Positions 31,247-32,477 of a stretch of 64,000 nucleotides of DNA are shown in pieces; the first letter of the stretch is position 1; each line of letters opens with the position of its first letter. A program made the position numbers and the translations under genes. Origin of the DNA: a virus; the IMG/VR virus record IMGVR_UViG_3300045125_000101, positions 7,823-71,822 of that record; one strand, written 5' to 3'. Below the pieces are notes generated by a model. It worked only from the letters and a program-made list of their open reading frames with translations, was not told the DNA's origin and did no database searches.

Positions 31247-31922
31247 TTACGCCAATCTTACTTCAGGAAATAGGTGGTTGTCAATAAAGTTCTTTACATC
31301 TTCTTCTTTATGTCCGCAGTTGATAAGAAAGCGTGATGTATGCACATTTTGCTTCTGGTTCATACAATACAGGTTGTGATTGACCATATAACTTTTGTTT
31401 TCAGAGTTCCATCCAACATTTTCAAGATAATACTTCATACAATCCTTTGCCACATCAATAACCATGCTCCAACTCAGCATCTGTATTTACCATACCCAGC
31501 AGCAATCATATTTGGACTGAAGATACGTTTGCCCCAATCTGGGAGTTCTCTGTCCTTTTTCCATACAAGTTTGGATGTTTTGTTCTTGAACCATATGTTC
31601 ATAGGATGATTTTCATCTGCCATACCTAAAATCAAGGAATACACCTGTAATCTTGTTTTCGCCGCATATTACATCAAAGCCAAAAATGGGTGAAGCATCA
31701 TCAAGATGTGGAAAGATACAAATATGCATAATCCACATCTTTTTTGACGCTGATACATCCAACACTTCAATATGACCGCGACGAAATCTTGTATTGCGAA
31801 ATATTCTATTTGTCCAAGAATATTTGGATAGTTCGTTTAGTTCTATTTCAATACTATCCTTGGCCAGCGACAGATATAAGTCGCTGCTCAAGGCTTTCAT
31901 CTTGTCAAATATTAACGCTCAT
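31247..31922 (-). CDS. pcyA: ferredoxin-dependent bilin reductase, PcyA-like (frameshifted)
   Basis: RRGHIE, MHICIFP, PIFGFD, RELPDWG.IFS, YC.NQKQN.HT...L, FI...LFP. Confidence 0.85.
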
Positions 31923-32477
31923 TAGAACCAAAGGTCTCTTTTTACGCCAGATATTTCATCAACGATGTCAATGGTATGTTTGAATGCCTTGTTTTGCTTC
32001 TTCGGCCAAGTTTGGCGTAGCAAGCTCACGCATCTTCATACGCAGTGCTGGCAGATTGTTTTCAAAATCATACATTCTGCCTGTGCTTGGCACAAGGCTC
32101 TTTAGCATTTGTCCGCCAAACATATCACCAGCAAATCTTACATAAAAATGAGCAGCAACCTTTTCTTTGTCATCAAGAGAAACAAGATAGTTATAATACA
32201 AAATGGTAGTAGTGCGAATGAAACTTCTTTTACCATTTACAGCATTTGCTTCTTCAAGGTCGGCTTTGATTTTATCTGAACGCTGAATGCCTTCAAACTC
32301 TTGCAGTATGCCAAACTTATGTGACACATATTCAAGTCCATCATATACCATTCTAAACTGCGTAAGATAATCCATATATTCCAACGGAGTAAGTGCCTTT
32401 GCCATAAGCAAACGCATAAAAATTGTGTTTTCAGCCTTTGCGTGGCTTTCTGCTGTAAGTTCTCTTAGTGTGCTCAT
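31922..32477 (-). CDS. ho1: heme oxygenase (frameshift near C-terminus)
   Basis: LRELT...H.KAE proximal His; H.YVRF.GDMFGGQML distal helix; TAATG coupling to the bilin reductase. Confidence 0.9.

Follow-up and report, generated by a model that had tools for sequence, protein, structure and literature searches.

A hemO–bilin reductase cassette in an uncultured, distantly T4-like phage: a predicted PcyX-clade enzyme with a glutamate at the PcyA Glu76 position

The hemO–FDBR locus

The window analysed here comprises 64,000 nucleotides (positions 7,823 to 71,822) of the IMG/VR virus record IMGVR_UViG_3300045125_000101, a contig of 138,067 bp rated as 64% complete by CheckV. On the minus strand of the window, a heme oxygenase gene (hemO, 31922..32477) is followed by a gene for a ferredoxin-dependent bilin reductase (FDBR, 31247..31922), and the two share a TAATG stop/start overlap that can be read directly (31920..31924, minus strand). 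The sequence-only reading of this DNA had proposed a coupled hemO and FDBR cassette at 31247-32477. Both genes indeed lie there on the minus strand, with the TAATG at 31924..31920 and the proposed catalytic residues in place, but the reading frames of both genes are interrupted in the deposited sequence, and these breaks had gone unreported.

The open hemO ORF of the deposited sequence (31968..32477, minus strand) stops after 169 aa, and the last ~16 codons resume in another frame. FDBR falls into five frame segments; under translation table 11, its ORFs measure 95, 56 and 77 aa and do not share a frame. Alternative genetic codes (table 4, TAG=Q) left the frames of both genes closed, and the breaks are therefore frameshifts rather than in-frame stops. 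Using blastn against a related IMG/VR contig, L001, we located five 1-nt insertions, each within a short base run: one in hemO (AAAA at 31992-31995) and four in FDBR (AA at 31912-31913, GG at 31625-31626, GGG at 31495-31497 and a fourth near 31461-31464). Once the insertions are read through, hemO encodes ~184 aa and FDBR ~222 aa. In all comparisons of both genes, we read through with an X at each break.

The related contig L001, 81% identical at the DNA level, shares five genes with the window in unchanged order, and each is intact there: a metallophosphoesterase of 243 aa, a small membrane protein, HemO of 184 aa, FDBR of 224 aa and a 198-aa protein. Its FDBR starts with MSVIFDKM and has the same TAATG overlap with hemO. 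A second relative, L004, is arranged in the same way, and the FDBR orthologues of both are intact at 224-225 aa. Each of the 19 related loci inspected has a heme oxygenase gene immediately upstream of FDBR, so the pair behaves as a conserved unit. The upstream syntenic neighbour in the window is the small membrane protein (32484..32699, minus strand), beyond which frameshifts divide the metallophosphoesterase into two pieces, 33131..33448 and 32715..33110 (minus strand); PF00149 matches both halves, and tblastn placed the gene in three frames, as opposed to the single intact frame in L001.

The hemO product has the hallmarks of a canonical heme oxygenase. Its ORF matched PF01126 with 52.4 bits (cut-off 23; E 8e-14), and the proximal His12 ligand as well as the GDMFGGQ motif, corresponding to the distal GDxxGG helix, aligned with solved heme oxygenases. 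The best relatives of solved structure were HO-2 from Synechocystis (1WOV) and others, at E 2e-8, and the intact HemO orthologue in L001 was 86% identical.

Directly downstream of FDBR, a hypothetical protein of 197 aa (30651..31244, minus strand) is syntenic in close relatives. It is rich in cysteine, had no match in Pfam or PHROG, and belongs to a large phage-only family with 99 IMG/VR matches. We considered this protein as a bilin-binding or lyase partner and rejected it, as many phages that lack the cassette carry members of its family: among the best 80 of the 99 IMG/VR loci, hemO or FDBR was found within 3 kb in only two. Because the family usually occurs without hemO/FDBR, we judged the 197-aa protein to lie outside the cassette.

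Descent, active site and predicted product of the reductase

When read through its stops, the window FDBR matched PF05996 with 37.5 bits (cut-off 31); the first fragment alone reached 30.8 bits and the intact orthologue in L001 54.2 bits. The first fragment found the sequence of the PcyX crystal structure (EBK42635, PDB 5OWG; Ledermann et al., 2016, 2018, as cited in PMC11480375) at E 9e-22, as opposed to 6e-5 or worse for PcyA chains, and the identity to the crystallised PcyX was ~55% over the core. A search of 1.84 billion representatives returned only 232 FDBR relatives, among which the group of the window enzyme forms its own cluster at 50% identity, separate from the known PcyX systems. 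This group is well populated, with at least 34 protein clusters at 90% identity, all of which have the motif H-[ILV]-E. The protein collection held no intact copy more than 90% identical to the window FDBR, the best being 83% identical, and the subclade motifs were absent from all FDBRs given in the supplement to PMC11480375.

In an IQ-TREE phylogeny of 91 FDBR sequences, the window enzyme fell inside a clade of 47 rows with a support of 100/100 and a stem of 0.97, which includes PcyX from Pelagibacter phage Mosig. Within this clade, it belongs to a subclade of 11 rows (support 97/98). The AU test rejected uniting this subclade with the clade of sequences resembling the phage CB_2 enzyme (delta lnL 83.6, p 0.0007), whereas a placement as sister to all other PcyX rows was not rejected (p 0.43). 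At five columns that separate the PcyA-type lineages from the PcyX clade, the subclade was PcyX-like at four and PcyA-like at none. The NCBIfam equivalog model for PcyA (NF002760, cut-off 206) gave the window FDBR 80.4 bits, well short of acceptance; as controls, PcyA from cyanophage P-SSM4 passed with 223.6 bits and Mosig PcyX scored 90. By sequence-inferred descent, the FDBR is thus a member of the PcyX clade, in a distinct Glu-bearing subclade. The earlier assignment as a PcyA-type reductase does not hold against the nesting at 100/100, the p-AU of 0.0007 for a CB_2-type grouping and the 80 versus 206 bits with NF002760. The same reading had named clustering with PcyX as one half of a result that would count against it, and clustering with PcyX is what the nesting amounts to.

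The active site tells a different story from the tree at one position. The sequence R-R-G-H-I-E of the window FDBR aligns over K-M-H-L-E76 of PcyA and R-A-H-L-D of PcyX, which places His51 and Glu53 (His51-Ile52-Glu53 codons at 31766..31774, minus strand) over His74 and Glu76 of PcyA in HMMER alignments to chains of both enzymes. His67 in the MHIC motif (codon 31724..31726, minus strand) corresponds to His88 of PcyA and His69 of PcyX, and Asp84 in the GFD motif (codon 31673..31675, minus strand), in a column invariant in both FDBR alignments, to Asp105 of PcyA and Asp86 of PcyX. Glu53, His67 and Asp84 accordingly match the catalytic triad Glu76/His88/Asp105, the role of which in PcyA has been described (PMC13446030). 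Where PcyX has Asp55, the window FDBR has Glu53, and the aspartate characteristic of a PcyX enzyme is therefore missing. The equivalents of His74/Glu76 (GHIE), His88 (MHIC) and Asp105 (GFD) claimed from sequence all aligned as proposed, and the statement that PcyX carries Asp at the Glu76 position proved right, both in our alignment and in table 2 of PMC13446030 and the supplement sequences of PMC11480375.

This position is far from uniform in the PcyX clade. Across its 47 rows, we counted 12 Asp, 11 Ser, 11 Glu, 7 Asn, 3 Lys and 3 Gln. Ten of the 11 rows in the window subclade keep H-[ILV]-E, the remaining one having Gln. All tree lineages outside the PcyX clade keep Glu, including cyanophage PcyA, Bradyrhizobium-like sequences and P0171, a relative of the CB_2 phage enzyme that contains a 10-residue motif of CB_2. 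Since the placement as sister to all other PcyX rows was not rejected, the Glu in the subclade may be an ancestral retention.

Judging from family membership and the conserved catalytic residues, we infer two reaction steps. HemO would open host heme to give biliverdin IX-alpha, iron and CO, and the translationally coupled FDBR would reduce biliverdin to a phycobilin with electrons from ferredoxin, which would have to be that of the host because the contig encodes none. Which phycobilin is formed is expected to depend on Glu53. In PcyA, Glu76 is required for 18-vinyl reduction, and PcyX with Asp makes phycoerythrobilin (PEB) (PMC13446030, PMC10151467); vPcyA of phage CB_2, which has Glu and no Asp55, makes phycocyanobilin (PCB) (text and supplement of PMC11480375). 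As Glu enables 18-vinyl reduction in PcyA and CB_2 vPcyA, PCB would be expected here, and on the strength of this one residue we give it close to an even chance as the product. PEB appears a possible though doubtful product, and the rest of our expectation goes to another product or a mixture. We therefore name PCB as the predicted product slightly ahead of PEB.

The strongest competing explanation is that the FDBR would be a functional PcyX, reducing biliverdin via 15,16-dihydrobiliverdin to PEB, with Glu53 simply replacing Asp55. Apart from Glu53, the predicted enzyme looks PcyX-like throughout, which favours PEB: it groups inside the PcyX clade with 100/100 support, shares ~55% core identity with the crystallised PcyX (E 9e-22) and belongs to a subclade that is PcyX-like at four of five discriminating columns, and every PcyX-clade enzyme assayed so far yields PEB (PMC11480375, PMC13446030). 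The Glu76-equivalent position may also matter less on the PcyX scaffold than in PcyA, given how variable it is within the clade. However, all assayed PEB-producing PcyX enzymes carry Asp at the Asp55 site, and every assayed Glu-bearing FDBR of the PcyA/AX lineage makes PCB, CB_2 vPcyA included. Moreover, the conservation of Glu in ten of 11 subclade rows suggests selection for it. We found no paper in the literature on a D55 variant of PcyX. On balance, we regard PEB synthesis with a merely substituted Glu53 as a tentative alternative that deserves to be kept in sight. To a similar, tentative degree, the Glu subclade might have been the first to diverge within the PcyX clade, having kept the ancestral PcyA chemistry and making PCB on a PcyX scaffold.

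Origin of the frame breaks

Five frame breaks within 1.23 kb could also mean that the cassette is truly decaying, the frameshifts being real mutations in a defective phage that makes no enzyme. The surroundings of the cassette argue otherwise. About seven of the 11 syntenic genes within 12 kb, including replication and phosphoesterase genes, are broken in frame in the contig and intact in L001, so that the neighbouring conserved genes are hit by the same kind of break. The breaks in the cassette sit in short base runs. Indels aside, the coding sequence is 83-86% identical at the protein level to intact relatives and contains no in-frame nonsense codons. In addition, the 138,067-bp record contains no ORF longer than 505 codons, and both of its ends, which lie outside the window (genome positions 1-100 and 137968-138067), bear adapter-like sequence in inverted orientation. 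We take this sequence for that of the Oxford Nanopore rapid-kit adapter. Possibly the whole record represents one read, either as such or after light polishing, and a nanopore read of this kind would fit frameshifts in most genes. Because the neighbouring genes break alike, the contig ends carry the presumed nanopore adapter and the related contigs carry the genes intact, the five frameshifts are, as far as sequence comparison can tell, almost certainly sequencing errors and not decay, which we consider very unlikely.

Split conserved genes occur elsewhere in the window as well, for example at 32715-33448, 27889-28516 and 26446-27004, as compared with intact orthologues in L001 and L004. ORF-based readings of the window should allow for 1-nt indels.

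Phage, host and comparison with known cassettes

The contig encodes T4-like replication genes, and its clamp loader is at most 40% identical to those of cultured phages from several host groups; the phage is uncultured and distantly T4-like. The G+C content of the window drops at about 16 kb, from 0.43-0.49 over positions 1-16000 to 0.32-0.40 over 16001-64000, and the higher-GC part holds a tRNA cluster (5495-9452) and a helicase gene.

Profile searches for Photo_RC, Phycobilisome (PF00502), GAF, Fer2 and Aminotran_1_2 (the family to which AlaS belongs) gave no match in the contig and five relatives, one of which is a 297-kb record rated complete. The hli profile (Chloroa_b-bind), run against the contig only, had no match there. 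The earlier observation that no photosynthesis genes are in view was borne out: the contig showed no psbA, hli, phycobiliprotein, GAF or ferredoxin gene. At the sensitivity of profile searches, no phage-encoded candidate for a bilin-binding protein emerged, and the third gene of the hemO-pcyA/X-alaS arrangement, alaS, was absent from the ~64%-complete contig and the five relatives. The part of the genome that the contig does not cover could still hold a ferredoxin gene, alaS or a gene for a bilin-binding protein.

With regard to the host, one lead came from a DUF1501 gene (21029-22171, minus strand), which shared up to 63% identity with homologues from Verrucomicrobiota, 21 of the 201 sampled genomes giving matches below E 1e-120. 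It reached at most 45% in a sample of Planctomycetota and at most 46% in Bacteroidota, and 301 Pseudomonadota genomes contained no strong match. The suggestion of a Verrucomicrobial host thereby gains indirect support, and we treat Verrucomicrobiota as a weak lead to the host or gene donor; it is a lead only, since a gene donor is not necessarily the host. Phytochrome PHY domains were present in four of the 201 Verrucomicrobiota genomes.

A locus search with an alignment of 12 FDBR sequences retrieved only PcyX-like genes, at identities of at most 43%, on short contigs of scattered metagenome-assembled genomes (MAGs) from Polynucleobacter, Pirellulales, Coraliomargarita, Verrucomicrobiales, Crocinitomicaceae and an archaeon; PcyA from Bradyrhizobium was not retrieved by this alignment. 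These MAG contigs are most likely mis-binned phage DNA, and we do not take the MAGs for hosts. The short contigs carrying PcyX-clade hemO-FDBR pairs (L019-L030) had been binned into MAGs from eight or more unrelated lineages, an archaeon among them. Among GenBank phages, a close FDBR was found only in Mosig, which infects SAR11.

A cyanophage cassette that upholds phycobilisome pigments of the host, like pcyA/pebS of T4-like cyanophages, would agree with a distantly T4-like phage whose best clamp-loader match is a Microcystis phage (40% identity) and with FDBR genes being classic cyanophage auxiliary metabolic genes, but it is the least credible explanation, as the contig and the five relatives searched contain no psbA, phycobiliprotein or ferredoxin gene and the contig no hli, the FDBR is only 23-26% identical to cyanophage PcyA and lies outside that lineage, among cultured phages a related FDBR occurs only in one that infects SAR11, and the DUF1501 gene is closest to Verrucomicrobiota. 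The host is non-cyanobacterial. Taken as a whole, we consider it probable that the locus is a hemO-FDBR phage cassette on a nanopore contig, encoding a Glu-bearing enzyme of the PcyX clade, with frameshifts from sequencing errors and a non-cyanobacterial host.

Among the known systems, the cassette comes closest to the phage hemO-pcyX pairs (EBK42635; Pelagibacter phage Mosig EXVC030M, MT647606). They have the same overlapping order of hemO before FDBR, their FDBRs belong to the same clade (100/100), the His/Asp catalytic pair is common to both, and their carriers are likewise T4-like phages without photosynthesis genes. The difference is at the active site, with Asp55 there and Glu in the window FDBR, and in overall similarity, as Mosig PcyX is only 38-44% identical to the window FDBR and its heme oxygenase only 30%. 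The vHemO/vPcyA pair of CB_2, a freshwater jumbo phage, whose 'PcyA*' was grouped with PcyA from Bradyrhizobium ORS278 (Chen et al., 2020; PMC11480375), resembles our case as an uncultured phage of a presumed non-phototroph with a heme oxygenase and an AX-lineage FDBR bearing the full Glu/His/Asp triad; the CB_2 enzyme has been shown to make PCB. However, CB_2-like FDBRs fall outside the PcyX clade and their union with the window subclade was rejected, and CB_2 has alaS as well as a gene between hemO and FDBR, whereas the pair in the window overlaps and no alaS was found. PcyA from Synechocystis (2D1E) and pcyA of P-SSM4 share the PF05996 fold family and the triad Glu76/His88/Asp105, but the cyanobacterial and cyanophage enzymes, at 23-26% identity, form a separate tree lineage, and P-SSM4 PcyA passed NF002760, which the window FDBR failed.

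How new the locus is was overstated in the sequence-only reading: freshwater jumbo phages with ho1 and pcyX-like genes were described in 2020 (bioRxiv 10.1101/2020.02.13.942896), and one such pair was characterised biochemically in 2024 (PMC11480375). HemO-PcyX/PcyA cassettes in phages of non-phototrophs, freshwater ones included, were published between 2016 and 2024 and are hence already known. The locus adds no new mechanism, its notable feature being the Glu on a PcyX scaffold.

The purpose of the bilin made by phage hemO-FDBR cassettes in hosts without phycobiliproteins is an acknowledged puzzle. The most economical role of the pathway would be the breakdown of heme for iron, the FDBR serving to remove biliverdin. 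The DUF1501 affinity offers a testable lead to the host in Verrucomicrobiota, a phylum in which 200 of the 201 sampled genomes contained no FDBR gene, the exception being a MAG with a suspect contig. As the subclade joins a PcyX scaffold to the glutamate of PcyA, it amounts to a natural experiment on the regiospecificity of bilin reductases, and the variation at this site suggests that uncultured phage bilin reductases may differ in their products. If the Glu subclade did diverge first and kept the PcyA chemistry, the change from Glu to Asp would be a natural switch from PCB to PEB synthesis, and the D/S/N/K/Q/E variation would point to diverse bilins made by phages in hosts that are non-phototrophic and possibly Verrucomicrobial.
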